Shown here: piece by piece, positions 36,396 through 64,000 of the stretch
Layout of the letters: every line of letters starts with the position of its first letter
How positions within the stretch are numbered: position 1 is the first letter of the stretch
DNA from: a virus
Lineage: Duplodnaviria > Caudoviricetes
IMG/VR virus record: IMGVR_UViG_3300025875_000011
Coordinates: 1 to 64,000 of that record
Reading direction: 5' to 3' (one strand)
Length of the DNA: 64,000 nt
Notes under the pieces: generated by a model
The model's input: the letters and a program-made list of their open reading frames with translations, nothing else
What the model was told of the DNA's origin: nothing
Database searches by the model: none
Program-made: the position numbers and the translations under genes

Positions 36396-36713
36396 TCACA
36401 ACCCTAGGGCGTTGAACAGTCCGAAGCCCCCGGTGAGGATGAAGACGACGAGGAGCACGGCCAGCTCGGACACGATGAACATCTGGCCCCAGATGATCCA
36501 CAGCGGCTTCTCGTCGAAACTCATCGGCCGGGGAGACACGGGGAGCCCGCTCGGGTCGTACACCTGGACCTGCCCGCCGACGACGGCCTGGGACTGGCCG
36601 TACTGGTTGATCATCCCGTCGGGCCGGTGGGCGTACTTCAACGTGACCCTGGTGGCCACCCACATCGCGGCCAGTGTTCCCAGGCCGAGGAGGACCTGAT
36701 AGAGCGTGTTCAT
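36396..36713 (-). CDS. Two-TM membrane protein
   Basis: N- and C-terminal hydrophobic helices; 4-bp overlap with the hydrolase gene. Confidence 0.75.
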   Translation of the reverse strand: MNTLYQVLLGLGTLAAMWVATRVTLKYAHRPDGMINQYGQSQAVVGGQVQVYDPSGLPVSPRPMSFDEKPLWIIWGQMFIVSELAVLLVVFILTGGFGLFNALGL

Positions 36714-38947
36714 CGTGCTCCTGTCAGCTGGGCCGTCTCGGGCCACAGCGTGGGGTGGGGGGCCGGGTCGTTGTTGTACCCCGACAGTCCGTTGCCGTGG
36801 TTCGGCCACGACCCCGTGATCTGCGGTGCGCTCTTGGTGCCCTCGTCAAGGAGAGACTCGCCGTGGACGTGGGACCCGGACCCGACGCTCGACCGTCCGG
36901 GGACGTTGCGGGCCCAAGCCGCGAACCCGGCCTGACGCATCGCCGTCTCCTTCGAGATGCAGTCGTCAGCGCCCGAGCAGGCGACGTCGACAGCACCCGG
37001 GTACTTGTGGGAGGTGCCCGACGCTCCGATGTGGCCGCCGCCGTACCCGCCTTGCATGAGGACCAGGTCCTTCCCGGTCTTCGACTCGACGAGGCGGATC
37101 TGGGCGGCGGTGATCGCGGACACGAACTTGCCGTCCATCGTCACCTTCTGCGACGGGACCGAGGGCGGGGCCACGACGCCGACCCCGATGGCCGCCTGGG
37201 CCGACGACGTCGCGATCTCGTGCCACACCGCTTGACGGGCGGTGTGGTCGGACCCGAACTTGCCGAGGTCGTGGACCTCGTCGGGCATCCGGCCGGTGGT
37301 GGCGATGACGTCGATGGTCCGCTTGCGCAGCGTCGGGGACAGGTCGGGCATGTGGAGACCGACCTGGGCGTACATCCCGTTCGGGTCGCCGTCGAAGTTC
37401 ATGTCGCCCATGACGATGACCGGGCCGAGGGGGGCGTGCTGTCGGACGACCTCCTGCAACTTCTTCCACCCCCGGATGGCGACCGCGATCCGGTGGGGCT
37501 CGTCGGGGTTGAGGACGCCGTGGCTCTGAATGTGGGGCAGCTGGTGCTGGTTGACGTACGTCTCGACCTGGCCGGTCCGGATACCGTCGGGTCCCTTCTT
37601 GGCCAGGACCATGACGACGAGGTAGCGGTCGCCCTGGTCGGGACCCTCGACGTTGTCGCCGCGCTCGTAGTAGCCGATGGTGTCGTCGGCCACGAGGTCG
37701 TAGGTCTTGCGGTCGTAGAACATCTCGTGGCTGGTGTGCTTCCCGACGAACGCGAAGTCCTGGCCGTCCATAGCCGCGTTGACGGCCTCCTTCCGGTCGG
37801 GGTCGGACAACTCCTGGGTGGCGATCACCTTCGCCTGCTTGGTGAACCCGACGAGGGCCTTCACCACCCGCTGGTCGTTGCCGTGCTGCTCGCGGGGGTA
37901 GACGCTGCCGTGGTAGCCGTTCCAGGTGATGACGGAGGTCCCCGAGATCGGAGCCCCCGCCCCCGCCGTCGGCGAGCAGCCGGGCGTCGGGCCCGGGGTC
38001 GTCGGGACGGTCGGAGCCGGGGCCGGGGCCTCCTCGCCGGGGCCCACGCCGGACGTGTCGCCCGGGCCGGTCCCGTTCGTCTTCGGCTCGAGGAGCTTCC
38101 CGAGGCCCTTCCCGACCTGCGGGGCCAGGCCGCCGACCTCGCTGCCCGGGACCGGGCTCCCACCGTCGCCGCTGGGCGGGGCCGTGGAGATCGTGGCGTA
38201 GCGGGCGTACTGGCCGACGTGGGACTGGGCCGTCTTGTACGTCGACCAGTCACCGGCCCACGTTCCCCCGCGCCCCTTCCACAGCGCGTAGGCGTACTTC
38301 GCGTTGACGTACGGGTCGGTCCGGTCGCCCAGCTTCAAGTGGTCAGCGTTCGGGCCGGAGATCTGCCAGTAGCCGACGTGGTTGCTCGAGTTGGCGATGT
38401 CGTGGTCGTAGCCCGACTCGTACTTGGCGATCGACACACCGAGCGGGATCTGGCCGAGCCACTTCGCGTCGGTCGGGGCCGCCGCGCGGAGCGCAGCCGC
38501 GGCCAGGTCGGGGCCGTCCTCGCCGGCCGTCCCGCTGGTCCCAGCGGGCGACAGCGGAGCGTTGGGGCTGGAGGGGAGGGTGACGGCTGGCTGGCAGCAC
38601 GACGCGAGCGCAGCGGCCCGACGCTTCTCGGTCTCGACCTGCCACCCCGTCTGCCAGGTGCTGTCCTCGCCGGTCTTCACGTTGGAGTCGAAGTTGTCGA
38701 ACCAGCCCTCGATCGTCCCGATCCCGCCCATGACGTTGCGGTAGATGTCGAGCGCCGACGGGGCGTCACCCTCGGTGAAGTTGTGGACGACCTTCCCGAA
38801 GGAGCCGACCTTCTCCCCGACGGAGAACGCGGCCGGGGTCCCGACCTCCCCGCCGCACGTCACCTCGACCTCGTCCATGTTGAAGGCGACGATCCCGACG
38901 AGGAGCACGCCGACGGTCAGCGCGGCGGTCTTGCGTCCGAGGCTCAC
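36710..38947 (-). CDS. Exported three-domain protein: lytic transglycosylase + EEP phosphodiesterase + M15-like peptidase
   Basis: N-terminal TM/signal; AKYESG...GYWQI...DPYVNAKYA (SLT); TWN, TQE, MGDMN, IDVI, SDH (EEP); SH...AVD...HVH (M15). Confidence 0.8.
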   Translation of the reverse strand: MSLGRKTAALTVGVLLVGIVAFNMDEVEVTCGGEVGTPAAFSVGEKVGSFGKVVHNFTEGDAPSALDIYRNVMGGIGTIEGWFDNFDSNVKTGEDSTWQTGWQVETEKRRAAALASCCQPAVTLPSSPNAPLSPAGTSGTAGEDGPDLAAAALRAAAPTDAKWLGQIPLGVSIAKYESGYDHDIANSSNHVGYWQISGPNADHLKLGDRTDPYVNAKYAYALWKGRGGTWAGDWSTYKTAQSHVGQYARYATISTAPPSGDGGSPVPGSEVGGLAPQVGKGLGKLLEPKTNGTGPGDTSGVGPGEEAPAPAPTVPTTPGPTPGCSPTAGAGAPISGTSVITWNGYHGSVYPREQHGNDQRVVKALVGFTKQAKVIATQELSDPDRKEAVNAAMDGQDFAFVGKHTSHEMFYDRKTYDLVADDTIGYYERGDNVEGPDQGDRYLVVMVLAKKGPDGIRTGQVETYVNQHQLPHIQSHGVLNPDEPHRIAVAIRGWKKLQEVVRQHAPLGPVIVMGDMNFDGDPNGMYAQVGLHMPDLSPTLRKRTIDVIATTGRMPDEVHDLGKFGSDHTARQAVWHEIATSSAQAAIGVGVVAPPSVPSQKVTMDGKFVSAITAAQIRLVESKTGKDLVLMQGGYGGGHIGASGTSHKYPGAVDVACSGADDCISKETAMRQAGFAAWARNVPGRSSVGSGSHVHGESLLDEGTKSAPQITGSWPNHGNGLSGYNNDPAPHPTLWPETAQLTGAR

Positions 38948-39249
38948 CGGCGGAACACCCGCATCACGGCAGCGACCAGGAGGAGGACCAGCCCGATGAG
39001 GCCGATGACACCTCCCGCGTTGGGGAGGCCCGCGGTGGCGAACTTTCCGCCGCCCATGAGCACCCCGACACCGGTCGCGGCGACCCAGGTGGAGCGCCGG
39101 TAGGTCTTCTTCGGCGGGGTGGCGGGGTCAGCGTCTCGCGCGTCCTGGGCCTGGAGGTCGCGGCCGCGGCGGGACACGGTGGACTCCCGGACGTGGACGG
39201 TCCTGCCGTTGACGGTGCGGACGTGAGCTCGCCGGGTGAAGGTGCTCAT
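38944..39249 (-). CDS. Small basic membrane protein
   Basis: Basic N-terminus (repeat RAHVRTVNGRTVHVRE) and two C-terminal TM helices; overlapped packing. Confidence 0.7.
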   Translation of the reverse strand: MSTFTRRAHVRTVNGRTVHVRESTVSRRGRDLQAQDARDADPATPPKKTYRRSTWVAATGVGVLMGGGKFATAGLPNAGGVIGLIGLVLLLVAAVMRVFRR

Positions 39250-41303
39250 TCGCTGTCTCCGAAGCCTGGGATGTGGGTGAGGTGGTCGCCGCCGACGAGG
39301 ACCGGTTCACGTCGGGGGACCGGCTTGCGCTTCCGGGTCCGCGGCTTGGCCTTCGGCTTCGGCTCTTCGACGACGTCGACGACCTCGCCCTCGAGCACGA
39401 CGGGAGCCGTCGCGTGGGGGTAGCCGCGGTACGCGTGGAGGATGTCGATGGGGGCCTGGTCCTCGAACAGGTCGGGCTCGACCGGCTCGGGCGTCTTGCG
39501 CTTCCGCTTCGGCAGATCGAGGGGGGTGATCTCCCCGTCGCGGTCGAACTTCGGGCCCCGGTAGGTGAGGCGGGTCAGGTGGGTGGCCCGGTTGTTCCCC
39601 GCGCCGGCGATGTTGAACATCGGCTGGAGGGCGTGGATCTCCTTCGACTCCCAGGCGAGCGCGGTCGGCTCGCCTGGGAAGACGCCCGACTCGGTCCAAC
39701 GGACGTGGGTGGCCCACCAGCGGCAGTCGACGTTGGAGCAGCCGGGGAACGGGCACCAGCCCTTCCACACGTCGTCGCGGCGGTGCTCGCCGTAGCGGCG
39801 GTCCCGCTTGTTCGTCTCCCCCGAGTAGATGTGGATGGCCCGTCCCTTCGGGGTGACGCCGAACGCGCGGTAGCCGTAGTGGGGACGCAGACCGTTGCGG
39901 AGTTCCCGGGCCAGGTCGCGGGTCATCATGTTCTCGGGCAGCTCGCCGGTCGTCATGAGGTGGCGGACGTGCTGCTTCCCGACGTCGGCGGTGCGGAACT
40001 TCATCCGCTCCCCCTCCTCGGTGACGTAGTAGCCGACGCCCCGCATCCCGAAAGGGATCTGGGAGCAGGGGACGCCTTCGTTCTCCCCGATTCCGAGGAC
40101 AGCCTTCGTGTCCTCAGCCGACGTCTGACGCATCGAGGCCCGCAGCTGGAAAGCCTTTCGGATACCGCCGATCTCCTGGACGGTGGCGACCTGGACGCTC
40201 ATCCACACAAAGTCGGCGGTGCTCCGACCCTGAGACATGTAGACGCCCATGTCGGTCTTCGCCATTCCGGCCTGGAATAGCGGGGCCACGTCGAGGCCTT
40301 CGTCGATGATCGTCAAGACGCCGGGAAAGTCGGGGTTAGGCCCGCCGATGTCGTTGAGGTCCATCGCCTCCTTTTCGGCCAGGATCTCTTGACGTTCGTG
40401 GAGTTCGGCGCGCATGGCCTTGAAGTGTTCGGTGGCCTCCTCCAGCGTGGTGAAGTAGCCGCGGATGCGGATGTTCCCGTGGCCGAAGGACTTGCCGACC
40501 CACCGCTGGAACCAGCGCAACTCGGTGCGCTTCGGGTCGACGATCCACACGTCGGTCGGCGTCTCGTCGCGGACGAGGTCGAACCACAGGTTCCAGGTGA
40601 ACTTGCTCTTACCGGCCCCCGACGCGGCACCGACGAGGATGTTGAAGCCGTACGGGACCTGGGCCACCTTCCCGTCGTTCTGCCAGCCGAAGGAGATCGA
40701 CGCCTTCCCCGACGGGGGGAGGTCGAGGATCGACCGGGTCGCCTCGAGCGGGCTCTTGTCCCAGAACGTCAACCACCCAGCGCCCTTCCCGGACGGGCTG
40801 ATCGAGATCTCCTCGCACTTCATCGTCCCGGGGAGGACGGTGACGGCGTCAGCGGAGATGCGGGCCATGTCGCCACCGAGCGAGCCGGGACTGACGTAGG
40901 CCCGGACCTGCCCGGTCGGCGTCAACTTCTTGCGGAGGAGCTTCGGCTCGACCCCGTTCCACGACACCTTCTGGCCGGCCGTGTAGATGGCCCACCGGGC
41001 GTCGATGTCGCCGAACTTCTTCCCGCTGGTCAGGAAGTTGAACGGAAGCCGCCACCACGGGACCTCAACGCCTTCGTCGACGAGCTCGGCGCGACGGTCG
41101 ATGATCTTCGTGACCACCAGCCACAGCAGGACGGCGGCGATGGTGAGGAGGACGACCTTCCCGCCGCTGAAGATGTCGCCGGTGAGGTCCCAGCACAGCC
41201 ACCAGTAGAGGCCGAGGACGGTCAGCGCGACCGGGGGTGGGAAGTCCATCCACCGACGGTTCGGCGTGCCGATCCAGTTCCACAGATCCTTCATGGCCTT
41301 CAC
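39246..41303 (-). CDS. Membrane-anchored FtsK/SpoIIIE (TraB-like) ATPase with C-terminal GIY-YIG-like domain
   Basis: Two N-terminal TMs; Walker A GAASGAGKS, VDPK, Walker B LTIIDEG, QGRS; C-terminal HYGYR...IYSGETN...R...H...E..EI....PMFN. Confidence 0.85.
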   Translation of the reverse strand: MKAMKDLWNWIGTPNRRWMDFPPPVALTVLGLYWWLCWDLTGDIFSGGKVVLLTIAAVLLWLVVTKIIDRRAELVDEGVEVPWWRLPFNFLTSGKKFGDIDARWAIYTAGQKVSWNGVEPKLLRKKLTPTGQVRAYVSPGSLGGDMARISADAVTVLPGTMKCEEISISPSGKGAGWLTFWDKSPLEATRSILDLPPSGKASISFGWQNDGKVAQVPYGFNILVGAASGAGKSKFTWNLWFDLVRDETPTDVWIVDPKRTELRWFQRWVGKSFGHGNIRIRGYFTTLEEATEHFKAMRAELHERQEILAEKEAMDLNDIGGPNPDFPGVLTIIDEGLDVAPLFQAGMAKTDMGVYMSQGRSTADFVWMSVQVATVQEIGGIRKAFQLRASMRQTSAEDTKAVLGIGENEGVPCSQIPFGMRGVGYYVTEEGERMKFRTADVGKQHVRHLMTTGELPENMMTRDLARELRNGLRPHYGYRAFGVTPKGRAIHIYSGETNKRDRRYGEHRRDDVWKGWCPFPGCSNVDCRWWATHVRWTESGVFPGEPTALAWESKEIHALQPMFNIAGAGNNRATHLTRLTYRGPKFDRDGEITPLDLPKRKRKTPEPVEPDLFEDQAPIDILHAYRGYPHATAPVVLEGEVVDVVEEPKPKAKPRTRKRKPVPRREPVLVGGDHLTHIPGFGDSE

Positions 41304-43285: not shown

Positions 43286-43488
43286 GGGAGGTGGAGGGCG
43301 AGCTCGGCCTCACGCTTTACCCAAGCGCGGCCAGCGAGCGGCGCGAACACCGTCTCGCCGGGAGTCACGTTGGCCAGGTCGTCCCGGATGAGGTTCAGGT
43401 AGGCCGGCCGAGCCGGGTCCTGCTCGGGGTAGAGCGGGACCACGTTCACGTCCAGGGGGGCGGGGTCGAGGTCCATCCAGTCGGCCAT
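43225..43488 (-). CDS. Hypothetical protein
   Basis: 87 aa, overlaps the PLD stop. Confidence 0.55.
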   Translation of the reverse strand: MADWMDLDPAPLDVNVVPLYPEQDPARPAYLNLIRDDLANVTPGETVFAPLAGRAWVKREAELALHLPWCDILDGGTCTANCRGGGL

Positions 43489-44567
43489 CAGCGCCACACC
43501 TTCGACTCGCGGTGGACGAGGTCGAACCAGCGCATCGTCTGCTCGACTTCGGCCAGCGACTTGATCGTGACGATGGCGTTGGTGTTGTAGGAGCTGCCTC
43601 CCAAGTTCGCGGAGCCGGTGATCACCTCGTTGACCTTCTTCGACCGGATCAGGATCACCTTGGCATGGTCCTTCACCTCGGCGAACGACGTGTCGCGGGT
43701 GTCGATGTCGTATTTCCGGATCGCCTTCAACACGTCGGGCTCGGTCTGCTCGGACGCGATGACGAGGCGGACGTAGCAGCCCTGCCGCTTCTTCTTCCCG
43801 GCCTCGATCGCCACTTCCTTGCGGGAGTCGTTCCAGATCATCATCACGACCTCGATGGTCGGGCGGACTTTCTTCCCGTGGAGGGTGTAGGCGTCGCAGT
43901 TGACGGCCGCGACTTCCTTGGCCCGGTTGTCCGGCCCGCCCGGGAGATAGTCGATTTTCCAGCTGCCGTCCTTCGACTTGATCGACTTCGGCGACTTCAC
44001 CTTGCGGTCGTAGCCGAGCGCCTTCACCCAGGCGGTGGTGGTGGTGTAGATCTTCCGGTCGTACGTCGAGGACCAGGTGTTCCACTTCACCTCGCCGGTG
44101 TTGGTGACGTTCCCGGAGGCGAGGAGCGAGCGGCCGGTCGTCTCGTTCCCGAGGAACTTGAGGTGCTGGACGCCCTTCCCCTTCTTCGCGGACGCGGGGG
44201 ACCCGTCGGCCTTGATCGCCCACGAGCTGGCCTTCGGGTTCGACCCGAGGCGGTGGACGAGGTCGTCCATCGCGTTGTAGTGGTCGCCCTTCCACGACAG
44301 GACGCGGACGTTGACGTGGCGGGCGATGGCGCGGACGAGCGCGGAGTGGACCTCCCAGTTCGACAGGCCGTACGTGGCGAGGGTGAGGTCGTCGCCGGCC
44401 TTGGCCCGGTCGATCTCCAGGCGCATCTGGTGGTTGAAGGAGTCGGCGGTGGTCTTGGTCCCACCGGCCGAGGAGGGGATGTTGAAGGAGATCGCCTGAG
44501 CGGGAATCGCCGGGGCGACGAGGAGAGCGGTGGTGGCCAGGCCGGCCAGGACGGGGCGGAGCTTCAT
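43488..44567 (-). CDS. Secreted phospholipase D superfamily protein (two HxK motifs)
   Basis: Signal peptide ending AQA; HLKF...ASGN and HAKV...ITGSAN. Confidence 0.85.
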   Translation of the reverse strand: MKLRPVLAGLATTALLVAPAIPAQAISFNIPSSAGGTKTTADSFNHQMRLEIDRAKAGDDLTLATYGLSNWEVHSALVRAIARHVNVRVLSWKGDHYNAMDDLVHRLGSNPKASSWAIKADGSPASAKKGKGVQHLKFLGNETTGRSLLASGNVTNTGEVKWNTWSSTYDRKIYTTTTAWVKALGYDRKVKSPKSIKSKDGSWKIDYLPGGPDNRAKEVAAVNCDAYTLHGKKVRPTIEVVMMIWNDSRKEVAIEAGKKKRQGCYVRLVIASEQTEPDVLKAIRKYDIDTRDTSFAEVKDHAKVILIRSKKVNEVITGSANLGGSSYNTNAIVTIKSLAEVEQTMRWFDLVHRESKVWR

Positions 44568-44617
44568 GGGGTGGGTCCTTCTGTGGTGGTGGTGCGGGTG
44601 GTGGGTTGGTGGAGGCG

Positions 44618-45358
44618 TCAGAACGGGTCTCCTACTTGGGTGGTGGTGGGCTCGGGGTCGACCTTCTTGACCCACGGGAGGCGGACGGACGTGAACCCTC
44701 GGTCGATGCTGGCCCGGAGGTATCCGGGCTCGACCAGGCCGATCGAGACCATGACCGCGAGGAGCGCCCACAGCTGGTCGCCCGTCATGGGGGTGTCGAG
44801 GTAGAGGTGGCCGTGGCCTTCGGTCGTCGACGGCACATAGGTGACGGGGACGTCGAGGTCGATCACCGGGGCGTGGAGGGCCGTGGCGAGGTGCTCGGGG
44901 TCGATCGTCCCGTCCTTGCGGGTCTTGGGCCAGAACTCCTCCTGGATCAGCGAGGTGACGACGTCGGCCCGGGCGACACCGGTCGGGGCCACGCTCCCCT
45001 CGTAGGACGACCAGTCGGCCACGGTCCCTGTGACCCGCTTCACGGTGCCGGGGACCACCTTCGCGTCGTGCTCCGCGAGCACAGAGGCCGGGTAGTCCTC
45101 GCGGGGCATGATCCCGGGGCTGGTGGTCGCGTCTTGGAACTGCTCGGCCGTGACCTCGAGAGCCAGGTTCGTGAGGGTCGCGCTGACGGCCTCGGCCATC
45201 CGGTCCTCGGGGTCCTCGTCGGTCCGGGAGTCGAGGAACCGCACGAACGCGCCGAGCACGCCCGCGGCGGCGGCGTCGACCTCAGCTGCCGTGGTCGTCC
45301 GGGGGAGGGTCTCCTTGATCGCCGCGGCCACCTCCTCGCGGAGCGTGAGCGTGGTCAT
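44618..45358 (-). CDS. Conserved phage protein with DxD / HxH motifs
   Basis: HAPVIDLDVP...STTEGHGHLYLD...RLPWVKK. Confidence 0.7.
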   Translation of the reverse strand: MTTLTLREEVAAAIKETLPRTTTAAEVDAAAAGVLGAFVRFLDSRTDEDPEDRMAEAVSATLTNLALEVTAEQFQDATTSPGIMPREDYPASVLAEHDAKVVPGTVKRVTGTVADWSSYEGSVAPTGVARADVVTSLIQEEFWPKTRKDGTIDPEHLATALHAPVIDLDVPVTYVPSTTEGHGHLYLDTPMTGDQLWALLAVMVSIGLVEPGYLRASIDRGFTSVRLPWVKKVDPEPTTTQVGDPF

Positions 45359-46773: not shown

Positions 46774-47202
46774 CTAGCGGGATTCCTGGTCTGTGGCTAC
46801 CCCCTTCCGCACAAGACGGTCTGCGACCCTGACCGTCCGCGCTGACCGATGGTTGAGGTCCCGGACCCCGTGCTCCGCAGACGCTCGGAACGACGGGTGC
46901 AGCGGGACCGGGGACACGTAGTCCAGGACCGACCGAACGATCCGGCCGGTGGCGAGCGCGATCCGCAGCGCGAGGAGTTGGTGCGGTCCGGCCGCCGCGA
47001 GGCCGACGCCGACCCAGCCGGCGCACAGGTTCCCGTCCTTCTGGTGGCACATGAACAGTCGCGGCGGCTGGTTGAAGGTCTCTGCGTCGTAGGGGGGCAG
47101 CTTTGCGTACTCGCTGAGGGACCAGAGCCCCGAGGGGGCGTCCGCGCGCATCGGACAGGATCCGCACGGACGCCCCGCTACCGGGTGAGGGTCACTCAGC
47201 AC
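46774..47202 (-). CDS. Cys-rich hypothetical protein (DUF6283-like)
   Basis: RPCGSCPMR..APSGLW..EY.KLP.YD...CHQ..CAGW pattern. Confidence 0.65.
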   Translation of the reverse strand: MLSDPHPVAGRPCGSCPMRADAPSGLWSLSEYAKLPPYDAETFNQPPRLFMCHQKDGNLCAGWVGVGLAAAGPHQLLALRIALATGRIVRSVLDYVSPVPLHPSFRASAEHGVRDLNHRSARTVRVADRLVRKGVATDQESR

Positions 47203-47999
47203 CCGAGGTCACCGTTCCAGCGGGCCCGCTGGTAGGCGTACGGGTGGCCGGTGACGATCATGTCGGCCCCGGCCGCGATCCCGGCCTTCCAGGAGGTGAG
47301 GGTTTCCCCTCCGGTCCGGACCACACCCCCGGCCGCGTGGATGGCCTTGACGGCCTCCGGGGTCATCTGGGAGGCGGAGGTGAAGTTCTCCCCGGAGATC
47401 CCGGCCGGCATCGGGAGGAGCGGCGCGTCGACGTTGAGGCTGATGTTCAGCTTCGGGTTGTTGGCCTTCATCCGCTGCATCGAGGCGAGTTCCCAGCGGA
47501 ACCCGGTCAGGTAGACGCGGCCCTCCAGGCCGACCAGCTGGGGCTCGAGGACGGCCTGCTCGGTGGGGGTGAGGTACCGCTTCAACTCCAGGAACAGGTG
47601 CGCGTTCGGGTCGGCCCGGACCAGGGCCAGGAGGCGGACCAGGGTGAGGATCTGCTCCCCGTCGTCGAGCCGGAGCGCGGCGATCTGGGTGGACGACTTC
47701 TCGATCACCAGGCCGTCGCCGTTCGACACCCGCTCCAGGGTGTTGTCGTGGAACATGACGCCCTTGTGGTCGGTGGTGAACCACAGGTCGGTCTCGGCCC
47801 AGTCGACCCCGTCGATCTTGTACGCGGCCAGGAAGGTGCGCTCGCCGTTCTCGGTCCCGCTCCCCTCGTAGGCCAGGCCGCGGTGAGCCGCGACGGGGGG
47901 ACACCCGGCCGCCTGAGCGGTCGGAGCGACGAGGGTCAGGGGGACAGCGGCGAGGGTGAGGGTGGCCCCGAAAGCAGCGAGGCGGTGGCGGAGGTTCAT
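47196..47999 (-). CDS. Secreted glycerophosphodiester phosphodiesterase (GDPD)
   Basis: Signal peptide ending AQA; AAHRG, EN, ETDLWFTTD, VMFHDNTLER, LFLELK, GADMIVT. Confidence 0.92.
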   Translation of the reverse strand: MNLRHRLAAFGATLTLAAVPLTLVAPTAQAAGCPPVAAHRGLAYEGSGTENGERTFLAAYKIDGVDWAETDLWFTTDHKGVMFHDNTLERVSNGDGLVIEKSSTQIAALRLDDGEQILTLVRLLALVRADPNAHLFLELKRYLTPTEQAVLEPQLVGLEGRVYLTGFRWELASMQRMKANNPKLNISLNVDAPLLPMPAGISGENFTSASQMTPEAVKAIHAAGGVVRTGGETLTSWKAGIAAGADMIVTGHPYAYQRARWNGDLGC

Positions 48000-48508
48000 C
48001 GGTGGGTTCCTTCGGTGGTGGAGGGGGTGGGGGTGTGGCCGTGGTTGTCCTTGGCGTCCTCGGTCCAGCACTCGTCGCACATGCTGTCGTGCTCGACGTC
48101 GGTCCCGCCCGGGACGTGCTTCGAGCACTCCGAGCACGCCCGGTTCCGGTGCTCCGAGCAGAAGAACAGGCCGTCGGTGGTCTCGGCCCAGTCGCTGTCG
48201 AGCGCCTCGTCACGAGCACCACCCGTGTCGGCCCAGGCGCTGTACTCGCTGTCCTCGGTGGACTTGACTCCGCACCCCGGCTCCTGGCAGACGATGAACC
48301 AGTAGGGCGCGGAGACGTAGCCGGTGGTCGGAGGGTCGGGTTCGGCCAGCCGAAGGATTGCCTCAGCGGGGAACAGCAAGTCGATGGTCTCGACGAGCCG
48401 CTCCCGCATCTGGGGGTCGAACACGATCTCGGCCCCGGCCTGCTCGTCCATCACGACGAGGAGATCGTCGACGCGCTGGACGACGAGCCGGTCACTGAGG
48501 CGGGTCAC
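47996..48508 (-). CDS. Hypothetical zinc-binding protein
   Basis: CQEPGC...FCSEH...CSEC...CDEC. Confidence 0.65.
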   Translation of the reverse strand: MTRLSDRLVVQRVDDLLVVMDEQAGAEIVFDPQMRERLVETIDLLFPAEAILRLAEPDPPTTGYVSAPYWFIVCQEPGCGVKSTEDSEYSAWADTGGARDEALDSDWAETTDGLFFCSEHRNRACSECSKHVPGGTDVEHDSMCDECWTEDAKDNHGHTPTPSTTEGTHR

Positions 48509-61994: not shown

Positions 61995-62708
61995 TCAGAC
62001 CAGCCGGACCGGCCGGCCGTACAGGTTGAGGGTGGTGTGGCCGAGCTGCCCGACCGAGAACCCGACGATGACCCACGGCTCCCCGTCGATCTCCGCGACG
62101 GTGACACCTTCGGGCTCGTAGCGGCCACCGATCGGGTTCCCCTTCACGTCGCGGGCCACCGCGTCGAGGTCGATCCGCCCGACCTCCACGGTCCCGTCGA
62201 TGACCTGGAGCCACGCGTTCTCCCCTGGGTGCCAGGCCGGGTCGGTCTTGATCGACCCACCGTGGAGCCGGACCCACCGGGTCCCGCCGAGGTGAGCGTC
62301 TCCCTGGGACCCGTTCGGGCGGGGGAGCGGACACGACGGCGGGGCCTTCGTCGGCTCGGTCGTGAACTCGGGGCCGAACGTGACCTTCGACCACACGCCG
62401 TTGATGCGGGTGACCATGTGGCCGTCGGCGTGGTCGGTCCGGTCCCCGTGACCGCCGCCGATGACCGTCCGCGTCTCCACGGCCAGGCCACCGCCCGCCT
62501 CGTAGCGGGACAGGACCAGGTCGTCGCCGGCGTTCGTCGGCTGGTCGGCCCGGTCGCGTCCCTGGGTCCCGCCCCACCCACCGGCGATCGGGACCCCGTA
62601 CTGCGGGACGACGTCGGTGTCAGCGGGGACGAGGTTGACCAGGAACTTCCAGCCCGGGTCAGGCTCCGGGGGCAGGGGGAGCGGGGTCGGGAAACGGGGC
62701 GGCCCCAA
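61995..62708 (-). CDS. Possible TagC/P68-RBP-like beta-propeller fragment (start uncertain)
   Basis: IGGGHG and RYEPEGVTV motifs; located between endolysin and holin. Confidence 0.45.
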   Translation of the reverse strand: MGPPRFPTPLPLPPEPDPGWKFLVNLVPADTDVVPQYGVPIAGGWGGTQGRDRADQPTNAGDDLVLSRYEAGGGLAVETRTVIGGGHGDRTDHADGHMVTRINGVWSKVTFGPEFTTEPTKAPPSCPLPRPNGSQGDAHLGGTRWVRLHGGSIKTDPAWHPGENAWLQVIDGTVEVGRIDLDAVARDVKGNPIGGRYEPEGVTVAEIDGEPWVIVGFSVGQLGHTTLNLYGRPVRLV

Positions 62709-64000
62709 GGGCCTCCACGGCCGCCGTCAGCGCGTCGACCTTGGCCTCGATCCGGTTCGACTTGTCGCCGAGCTGGTGGATCGCGGTCTTCGGGGCCACG
62801 TTCTCGTTGTCGGGGTTCGCGGTCAGCGCGCCCCCGTTCGGGACGTAGTCCTCGTCGAGGACGGCCTGGGCGATCTTGTGGAGCAGGTCGTCGTCGGCCT
62901 TCATCGCCGTGATCAGCGCGGGCACGACGGCCTTGACGACTTCGGATGTGGTGGTCATGGCGAACTGGTCCTCCTGGACTTCGGGTGGGTCGATCAGGGT
63001 GTAGCCGTTGCCCTCGACGAGGGCGTATCCGGCGTAGGTGAGCCCCCAGTGGACGCGGGGCATGGTGATGTCGCATTCCCCGATCCGGCCGTAGCGCGGA
63101 CCGGAGTCGGTCATGTCGGTGGACACGATCCGACGCCCGCCCAGGCCGACAGCGGCGTGGCCGTGGTCAGACGACCCGCCCGTCCAGTAGTGGTAGACCC
63201 CGGGCGGGATCTGGTCGTACTTCACGTCGGCGGCCTTCACGACCCGACCGTTGGCGACGGCCTTCTTCCAGCCGTCCTCCGCGTCCGCGGCCGCGTCACC
63301 GTCGTAGTCGCCGACCGATCCGGTCTGGCCGCACTCGTTGGTGAACTTCTGGCACCACGCGATCCCGTACGAGTCACCGACCCGGCCGCGCGCGTACGCG
63401 GCCAGAGCCTTTCCGTGGCGGGGGGCGAGCTTCACAGGGACCTCCTCGGTTGTGGGGAGCAGGTCGTCCCCGATCTTGAGCCAGGCGTCGTACCAGGCCC
63501 GTCGTGCGCTGATCCCGTTCGGGGTGGCGCTTGAGGTCGGGTTCCCGAGGTTCACGGCCCGCTGGGTGGCGAGGAAGTCGCCGCGGTTCCCGTACGCCCA
63601 GATCCCGTTCTTGCGCCAGAACCAGACCCCGCCGAGCCAGGCCCACCGGATCTCGGCCAGCTTCTTCGGGGAGTCGACGAACGTGTCCGGGTCCGACAGC
63701 AGGCCCCGCTCGGAGCACCACTTCCCGAACGCGGCGTAGTTGTCCTTCCACGTCACCATCTCGAACGTCCGCCCGATGAACGGTGCGTAGCGGCCGTTCT
63801 TCGCGTACTCCTCGGTGACGCGGAACGACGCGGACTCCTGGGCCATCGTGGCCAGGAACGCAGCCGCTCCCTTCACCGTCAGGCCCTCCGGGGCCGTCGA
63901 CAGGGCCGCGTCCGCTCCCGACGCGAGCACCGCCAGACTCGTCACCTGGCGGCCGTACGCGCCGGGGATGGCCCGTAGGACCTGCTCGACGTGCTTCGCG
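62659..64000 (-). CDS. Endolysin (partial at 5' end): GH19-like glycosidase + CHAP/NlpC-like amidase
   Basis: MAQESASFR...FIGR...TW..NY..FG...TQRAVN; AWCQKF...HGHAAVGLG; frame stays open upstream of 63945 to the window edge. Confidence 0.85.
   Translation of the reverse strand, partial: AKHVEQVLRAIPGAYGRQVTSLAVLASGADAALSTAPEGLTVKGAAAFLATMAQESASFRVTEEYAKNGRYAPFIGRTFEMVTWKDNYAAFGKWCSERGLLSDPDTFVDSPKKLAEIRWAWLGGVWFWRKNGIWAYGNRGDFLATQRAVNLGNPTSSATPNGISARRAWYDAWLKIGDDLLPTTEEVPVKLAPRHGKALAAYARGRVGDSYGIAWCQKFTNECGQTGSVGDYDGDAAADAEDGWKKAVANGRVVKAADVKYDQIPPGVYHYWTGGSSDHGHAAVGLGGRRIVSTDMTDSGPRYGRIGECDITMPRVHWGLTYAGYALVEGNGYTLIDPPEVQEDQFAMTTTSEVVKAVVPALITAMKADDDLLHKIAQAVLDEDYVPNGGALTANPDNENVAPKTAIHQLGDKSNRIEAKVDALTAAVEALGAAPFPDPAPPAPGA

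Follow-up and report, generated by a model that had tools for sequence, protein, structure and literature searches.

The window analysed here is a stretch of 64,000 nucleotides, positions 1 to 64,000 of the IMG/VR virus record IMGVR_UViG_3300025875_000011. Its minus strand carries at 36710..38947 a gene for a putative multi-domain cell wall hydrolase, hereafter P0001, which is predicted to join a lysozyme-like domain, an EEP phosphoesterase domain and a zinc peptidase domain behind a membrane anchor. An earlier reading of the sequence, hereafter the original prediction, had placed an exported protein with three catalytic domains at this locus, and an open reading frame (ORF) of 745 aa on the minus strand lies exactly there. 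Moreover, every motif quoted in that prediction is found in the translation, namely AKYES at residue 174, GYWQI at 192, ITWN at 340, ATQE at 376, GDMN at 514, TIDV at 544, GSDH at 565, SHKYPGAVD at 646 and SHVH at 692. The window is GC-rich (~70%), and the GC content of the ORF at the three codon positions is 0.67, 0.52 and 0.92, the last being the third-position value (GC3). A plus-strand ORF of 809 aa over the gene was rejected as a shadow frame, as its translation is rich in Arg, Gly and Val and the GC3 of 0.92 belongs to the minus strand. The start codon of P0001 is GTG, whose overlap with the stop codon of the preceding gene reads GTGA, and the alignment with the relative P0010 begins at residue 1, which supports this N-terminus.

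Searches of NCBIfam and PHROGs with P0001 returned no match, and the sequence search of the PDB gave no usable match. The layout of the protein, read from its sequence and from a whole-protein AlphaFold2 (AF2) model, is an anchor, a conserved N-domain, an SLT domain, a linker, an EEP domain and a LAS-fold peptidase, all described below with coordinates on the minus strand. The anchor, SLT domain, Pro/Gly linker, EEP domain and peptidase of the original prediction were all recovered, and what it had overlooked is the conserved N-domain of ~110 aa. The proposal of three catalytic domains gains support from the fold matches, which exceed what chance would give, and from the conserved residues of the SLT, EEP and LAS domains, and all catalytic residues of the three domains are intact in the sequence.

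The N-terminal signal-anchor or transmembrane (TM) helix comprises residues 7-25 (38873..38929), the only stretch of P0001 with a 19-residue Kyte-Doolittle mean above 1.6 (maximum 1.77); in the model the helix spans residues 2-21, and Gly, Ala, Thr and Val are abundant in it. It is followed by the conserved helical N-domain (residues 26-135; 38543..38872), which was aligned across the family, is common to ~27 clusters by our own hidden Markov model (HMM), and is marked by conserved cysteines, C31 as an invariant Cys near its start and C117-C118 in a CC(P) motif at its end. The model of this domain is of low confidence (low predicted local distance difference test, pLDDT), and no known fold or family was matched. 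Six Cys of P0001 are at conserved positions, and this together with the single TM helix fits export of the protein, in agreement with the exported and anchored topology proposed originally. Between the SLT and EEP domains lies a disordered linker rich in Pro, Gly and Thr (residues 255-331; 37955..38185), which ends at the conserved C324; the pLDDT is below 50 across residues 253-331.

The SLT/GH23 lysozyme-like domain (residues 141-254; 38186..38527) is characterized by E177-S178, G192-Y-W-Q-I and the stretch DPYVNAKYAY. E177, G192, W194 and Q195 are invariant in the alignments A4 and A5. A lysozyme-like alpha fold is indicated by VIA matches of Z 6.0-7.9 with 102-111 residues aligned to muramidases, MltF, MltC and AtlA, at a pLDDT of 50-80 in this region of the whole-protein model. 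The Pfam SLT model (PF01464) scored 20.6 bits on P0001, slightly below its cutoff of 21.3, and the aligned relatives P0007 (57.1 bits), P0011 (48.6 bits) and P0009 (46.5 bits) clear the SLT_3 model (PF18896).

The EEP domain (residues 335-580; 37208..37945) was modelled at a pLDDT of ~90 as a four-layer alpha/beta sandwich. VIA gave a Z of 21.8, with a root-mean-square deviation (rmsd) of 2.7-3.2 over 209-221 residues; 38 chains were found at a VIA Z of at least 8, and the Foldseek E-value was 2e-10. The complete EEP residue set that had been read from the motifs was borne out, since all metal-binding and catalytic residues are present (N343, E379, H468, D515, N517, D546 and S566-D567-H568) and show little or no variation across 16 sequences. 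The Pfam EEP model (PF03372) gave P0001 21.8 bits, again slightly below the cutoff (24.5), which is exceeded by the relatives P0009 (50.2 bits) and P0038 (48.1 bits). In the comparison of the EEP family profile with the PDB, the Bacteroides protein 3g6s came first (E 7e-13), followed by 3mpr, the mannosyl-6-phosphatase 4c1r (BT3783), and then TDP2 and ExoIII, both much weaker than the Bacteroides EEPs; neither DNase I nor sphingomyelinase appears in that search. The nearest solved EEPs (3g6s, 3mpr and 4c1r) have the same fold (Z ~21), and the metal-binding and catalytic residues are present in P0001; however, they are only 14-17% identical to it, and the EEP domain of P0001 is instead embedded between two wall hydrolase domains.

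Two alternative roles for this domain were weighed against a role on wall polymers. The EEP might be an enzyme of the phospholipase C or sphingomyelinase type that acts on the head groups of membrane lipids or lipoglycans, such as the phosphatidylinositol-anchored lipoglycans of Actinobacteria, and so loosens the membrane-wall interface. The tied best structural matches do include neutral sphingomyelinases (Z 21.5 and 20.4) and Streptomyces sphingomyelinase C (Z 19.2), and the anchor keeps the enzyme at the surface of the membrane; yet the PDB profile search shows no sphingomyelinase, the long disordered linkers would hold the EEP off the membrane, and the LysM and peptidoglycan hydrolase partners of related EEPs, described below, point to the wall, so that we consider a lipid substrate quite improbable. 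Alternatively, the EEP could be a nuclease, namely a tethered extracellular DNase that processes or degrades DNA at the site of translocation or destroys foreign or extracellular DNA. In favour of this, Gram-positive bacteria have EEP nucleases anchored to the wall, TDP2, ExoIII/AP endonucleases, CCR4/CNOT6L and DNase1L3 are found among the top Foldseek and VIA neighbours, and the adjoining gene encodes a putative DNA translocase. The profile search speaks against this, with Bacteroides EEPs, including a sugar-phosphate phosphatase, as nearest solved relatives, TDP2 and ExoIII far behind and DNase I absent; so does the recurrent fusion of EEP domains to wall hydrolases and LysM in proteins that carry no DNA-related module, some of which are lysin-like and have no signal peptide. 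A nuclease role is accordingly an unlikely one in our estimation.

The C-terminal domain (residues 597-740; 36728..37159) is a LAS-fold, M15-like zinc peptidase, as judged from its sequence and model. H647-x6-D654 and H693-x-H695 are invariant in 28 sequences, and the domain folded alone with 27 stand-alone homologues reached an AF2 pLDDT of 89.9. All 15 of the 15 top VIA matches are LAS/M15-fold enzymes (Z 4.8-7.3), led by the Zn DD-peptidase 1lbu of Streptomyces albus (Z 7.3, 106 residues aligned, rmsd 3.6) and including hedgehog (Z 6.8), VanXYg (6.2), VanX (6.1) and MepA (6.0), as well as VanY, LdcB, LysB4, Ply500, VldE and the T5 endopeptidase. The Foldseek lists from the PDB and BFVD consist mostly of M15 and hedgehog entries with weak E-values, the BFVD matches being M15 peptidases and endolysins. 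The four residues H647, D654, H693 and H695 presumably correspond, by their motifs, to the ligands of 1lbu, VanX and Shh.

At the sequence level this peptidase stands apart. No Pfam family matched residues 590-745 at an E-value of 1 or less, and the PDB sequence search with the C-domain profile gave no usable match; a single M15_4 row on P0001 was dismissed as noise, as it falls on the SLT region. The LAS metallopeptidases (MEROPS clan MD), which comprise 1lbu, VanX/VanXY, MepA, the L-Ala-D-Glu peptidases Ply500 and LysB4 and the hedgehog N-domain, thus share with the C-domain the fold (Z 5-7.3) and the H-x6-D and H-x-H motifs, whereas sequence-level matches to Pfam M15 models or the PDB are missing. 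Of the proposed M15-like zinc peptidase, then, the LAS fold and the zinc signature hold, and membership of a Pfam M15 model (M15, M15_3, M15_4 or VanY) does not, so that the domain lies outside the described M15 families.

In the representative library, the family of this domain comprises at least 115 clusters. The LAS domain is also found deep within proteins of 1200-2200 aa (P0013, P0016, P0019, P0022 and others), which are candidates for tape-measure or tail-lysin proteins by resemblance; in P0013 it is followed by a Phage tail lysozyme domain (78.6 bits). Some stand-alone members end in a stretch which, by eye, we take to be a motif of the PG_binding_1 type. With the stand-alone member P0085 as query, the annotated plasmid and phage collections gave only two matches, one to L006 (Nonomuraea gerenzanensis NZ_LT559118.1, 180416-180811; 57% identity) and one to gp2 of EBPR siphovirus 6 (52% identity); one of these lies where nothing is annotated and the other is annotated as hypothetical.

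The combination of domains in P0001 recurs. When 1.84 billion representatives were searched exhaustively with HMMER, 279 matches were obtained, most of them to the LAS domain alone, and the architectures below were counted among the best 150 of these 279 with our own domain HMMs and Pfam. The full order of N-domain, SLT, EEP and LAS is present in three sequences (P0001, P0004 and P0005), and P0009, a metagenomic protein of 710 aa, has a permuted order with SLT_3 at 174-254, LAS at ~290-437 and EEP at 485-694. In addition, SLT and EEP are combined with NlpC/P60 or CHAP in ~8 sequences, with NlpC/P60 in P0006 and P0011 and CHAP in P0003 and P0038, and at least four Pfam-confirmed two-domain proteins join EEP and LAS, in both orders. 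Some of the EEP+LAS proteins have no signal peptide and resemble lysins. A search from the related hydrolase of the viral contig L005, described below, added M23+EEP+SLT (P0169, P0171 and P0172), NlpC/P60+EEP+SLT (P0167) and EEP+SLT (P0168 and P0170), so that the peptidase slot beside SLT and EEP is filled by four types, LAS, NlpC/P60, CHAP, or M23 with VldE. Matches of our own EEP HMM in P0029, P0015, P0111 and P0091 were not confirmed by Pfam and were not counted.

All the domain combinations listed above come from metagenome assemblies. No match was obtained by tblastn with P0001 among PLSDB plasmids and INPHARED phages, no relative by profile scans of 185,579 species genomes with the alignments A4 and A5, and no match by scans of viral contigs with P0001, A5, P0097 and P0079; the metagenome scan recovered only the contig L002, and few members were gained from word-indexed homologue searches. 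In the ESM Atlas, an Actinomycetota cluster of 53 members with EEP+M23+VldE (score 0.81) is a lead only, and the Atlas search with the EEP part returned only generic EEP clusters. In the literature, nothing relevant was found on EEP together with peptidoglycan hydrolase, teichoic acid, phage or endolysin. The original prediction had held that an inserted EEP was not known: this stands as far as papers and annotated reference records are concerned, but the arrangement recurs in at least 12 unannotated metagenomic clusters. It is nevertheless far from common in databases, with no case in the reference genomes, plasmids and sequenced phages searched. The SLT+EEP+peptidase architecture is, on these sequence searches, rare and not unique, and marks an uncharacterised recurrent family.

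The hydrolase gene is part of a compact module on the minus strand, in which a gene for a membrane FtsK/SpoIIIE-like ATPase is followed by overlapping genes for a 101-aa TM protein, the hydrolase and a 105-aa protein with two TM helices. The ATPase (685 aa; 39246..41303) was assigned from phrog_1358, from its sequence and from synteny in the contigs L002 and L005, and has two N-terminal TM helices and the Walker A motif GAASGAGKS. The 101-aa protein (38944..39249) has a C-terminal TM segment, and its gene overlaps each neighbour by 4 bp. The gene of the 105-aa protein (36396..36713) begins with an ATG that overlaps the hydrolase stop as ATGA. Between 33000 and 42600 no promoter-like site was found on the minus strand and no terminator-like site on either strand. 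The hydrolase gene is translationally coupled into this module.

The trio of FtsK-like ATPase, hydrolase and 2-TM protein is also found on two other viral contigs, and the module context was read on these three (the window, L002 and L005). On L002 (29 kb), an FtsK-like gene (30.1 bits on Pfam FtsK_SpoIIIE) is followed by a hydrolase of 633 aa, which has the four-part layout of P0001, and by a 2-TM protein (L002:11857-12126). On L005 (38 kb), an FtsK-like gene precedes a hydrolase of 811 aa (L005:7131-9563, plus strand), which is again followed by a predicted 2-TM protein (L005:9567-9836). This L005 hydrolase consists of a TM helix, the N-domain, Peptidase_M23 (100.6 bits), SLT_3, EEP and a VldE-type C-domain ending in HRDHVHVS, that is, four predicted catalytic domains behind an anchor and N-domain like those of P0001. 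The ATPases of the three contigs are mutually only 24-30% identical, which indicates that the linkage of the trio is old. Another frame of this contig (L005:12071-13807, minus strand; 579 aa) encodes a LysM+EEP protein with LysM at 33 bits and a C-terminal EEP, in which an EEP domain is joined directly to a peptidoglycan-binding module; its N-terminal domain with H..D and HxH appears VldE-like as read by eye. The small 2-TM protein of the trio could be a holin-like or Spd-like partner.

The record as a whole, from an uncultivated phage, has 76,216 bp and is estimated to be 91% complete. Its genes include those for a tape measure protein, a major head protein, a portal, a large terminase, the queuosine pathway, an endolysin-like protein and a DnaB helicase, and the terminase (TerL) shares 48% identity with its counterparts in 75-kb Mycobacterium phages, so that the record can be assigned by gene content to a tailed actinophage. 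Besides the FtsK/SpoIIIE-like ATPase, Pfam and PHROG identified among the neighbours of the hydrolase a sigma factor, DnaB, a ParB-like protein, a PLD-like enzyme and a GDPD; the gene is surrounded by replication and regulatory genes. A canonical lysis cassette lies on the minus strand at the end of the window (62659-63999, continuing to ~64450; L004:2659-4450), after the tail genes. It encodes a GH19-like endolysin of 450 aa, whose N-terminus is GH19-like and which has no signal peptide, preceded by a 145-aa protein with TM and coiled-coil segments. In the last 12 kb of the record, Pfam revealed neither a LysB-like esterase nor a pointer to the host.

P0001 was considered as the main endolysin of the phage and rejected in view of this separate GH19-like endolysin with its TM protein at ~62.6-64.5 kb: a 2-TM protein does adjoin the P0001 gene, yet the canonical endolysin has a TM protein of its own. 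P0001 might still be a second lysin, tethered in the manner of signal-arrest-release (SAR) proteins, with the 2-TM protein as its holin or pinholin and the FtsK-like neighbour as an incidental one. The small 2-TM protein is encoded directly downstream in all three phages, where it was counted as translationally coupled, Gly, Ala, Thr and Val abound in the N-terminal helix, and the related EEP+LAS proteins that have no signal peptide resemble endolysins. Nevertheless, a canonical endolysin and TM protein exist elsewhere, past the tail genes, the FtsK-like adjacency has been kept on three contigs despite the low identity of the ATPases, and the gene is located amid replication and regulatory genes, which together leave a second lysin improbable in our view.

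Two further genes near the hydrolase encode phosphodiesterase-type enzymes. The PLD-like protein (43488-44771, minus strand; PLDc_2, 44 bits) likely starts at MKLRPVLAG... and the GDPD protein (47196-48209, minus strand; 38 bits) at MNLRHRLAAF...AQAAGC, each then with a classical signal peptide, and AQAAGC is a possible lipobox that would make a lipoprotein of the GDPD. Counted with the EEP of P0001, three exported enzymes of the phosphodiesterase type are predicted in one phage.

Wall hydrolases with several domains and a membrane anchor are known to assist both DNA-transfer machines and phage lysis. CwlT of ICEBs1 and TraG of pIP501, which we take to be membrane-anchored multi-domain wall hydrolases of Gram-positive conjugation machines, presumably share with PrgK an N-terminal TM anchor, an extracellular lysozyme or SLT domain, one or two peptidases (LytM/M23, CHAP or NlpC/P60) and an adjoining DNA-transfer ATPase. 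The resemblance to conjugative wall hydrolases suggested originally is upheld, as in P0001 a glycosidase and a peptidase are joined to a TM anchor and its gene adjoins one for a putative membrane DNA translocase, and members of its family carry the peptidase types of the VirB1-like PrgK/CwlT/TraG class. The differences are that an intact EEP is inserted in P0001, that its LAS-fold peptidase is undetected by any Pfam model, and that its partner is a single-ATPase FtsK/SpoIIIE-like protein on a tailed phage, whereas those hydrolases act with a VirB4/VirD4 type IV secretion system (T4SS). A second comparison is with the LysA-type endolysins of actinobacteriophages, in which peptidase and glycosidase modules are shuffled as in the P0001 family, whose members are themselves actinophage-like; P0001 differs by its membrane anchor, its location outside the lysis cassette and its EEP domain, and to our knowledge the published catalogue of LysA domains contains no EEP. 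PrgK of pCF10 itself has a TM anchor with LytM, SLT and CHAP domains (PMC11323569). The phage module can also be likened, from its genes alone, to the TraB/Spd apparatus for plasmid transfer and spreading of Streptomyces pSVH1, as in each an FtsK-like motor in the membrane is accompanied by small membrane proteins, those of pSVH1 contacting peptidoglycan (PMC4447253).

Taken together, the reading that we favour, tentatively and at slightly less than an even chance, is that P0001 is a tethered wall-opening enzyme which serves the FtsK-like translocase and whose EEP domain acts on phosphodiester-linked wall polymers. The activities, substrates and link to DNA transfer that we infer would fit together as follows. 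The N-terminal helix would tether the extracytoplasmic enzyme to the membrane, the GH23/SLT-type domain would cut glycan strands, and the LAS-fold zinc peptidase would cut peptide stems or cross-links. The Mg-dependent EEP between them might remove or cut phosphodiester-linked wall glycopolymers that shield the peptidoglycan, with teichoic-acid-type polymers or their linkage to N-acetylmuramic acid (MurNAc) as possible targets. In this way the hydrolase may open the wall locally at the site of the translocase, as PrgK, CwlT and TraG do for conjugation machines. A bolder form of this proposal, which we regard as possible but rather doubtful, is that the EEP cuts the phosphodiester which ties a polymer of the teichoic acid or arabinogalactan type to MurNAc, or the backbone of such a polymer, so that a single chain would sever glycan, peptide and phosphodiester bonds and open a channel for an FtsK/TraB-like translocase. 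We know of no EEP enzyme to which wall-polymer phosphodiesterase activity has been assigned.

Wall polymers are favoured over DNA as the substrate because EEP domains are recurrently fused to wall-cutting or wall-binding modules in either order, because some of these fusions lack export signals and resemble lysins, and because the nearest solved sequence relatives include a sugar-phosphate phosphatase. They are also favoured because the phage exports two more phosphodiesterase-type enzymes, the GDPD and the PLD-like protein, and because the related phage L005 carries the LysM+EEP protein. Furthermore, wall teichoic acids matter to envelope integrity in the conjugation of ICEBs1 (PMC9324163), which makes a teichoic-acid-directed activity plausible in such a machine and is no proof for P0001.

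Several points weigh against a tethered wall-opening enzyme of this kind. By structure, TDP2, neutral sphingomyelinase, CCR4-type nucleases and uncharacterised EEPs match the EEP about equally well (Z 20-22), so that the fold selects no substrate. In PrgK, the SLT domain alone is active and the other domains regulate it (PMC11323569), and by this precedent the intact motifs of P0001 need not mean three activities, which are here predicted from sequence and models. The TraB/Spd system of pSVH1 has peptidoglycan-binding proteins and no dedicated hydrolase (PMC4447253). Moreover, no VirB4-type or T4SS family was found by Pfam and PHROG among the neighbours scanned, and the module context comes from three contigs only.

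An intact EEP within multi-domain wall hydrolases is undescribed in the literature searched, and its repeated fusion, beside four peptidase types, in permuted order and with LysM, argues for a wall-related job of the EEP domain in Actinobacteria. If the EEP does detach or cut wall polymers, it would fill a gap in the enzymology of wall turnover and might offer a mild tool to release phosphodiester-linked wall polymers. As well, it would explain how a phage-borne FtsK-like pump passes through a thick wall.

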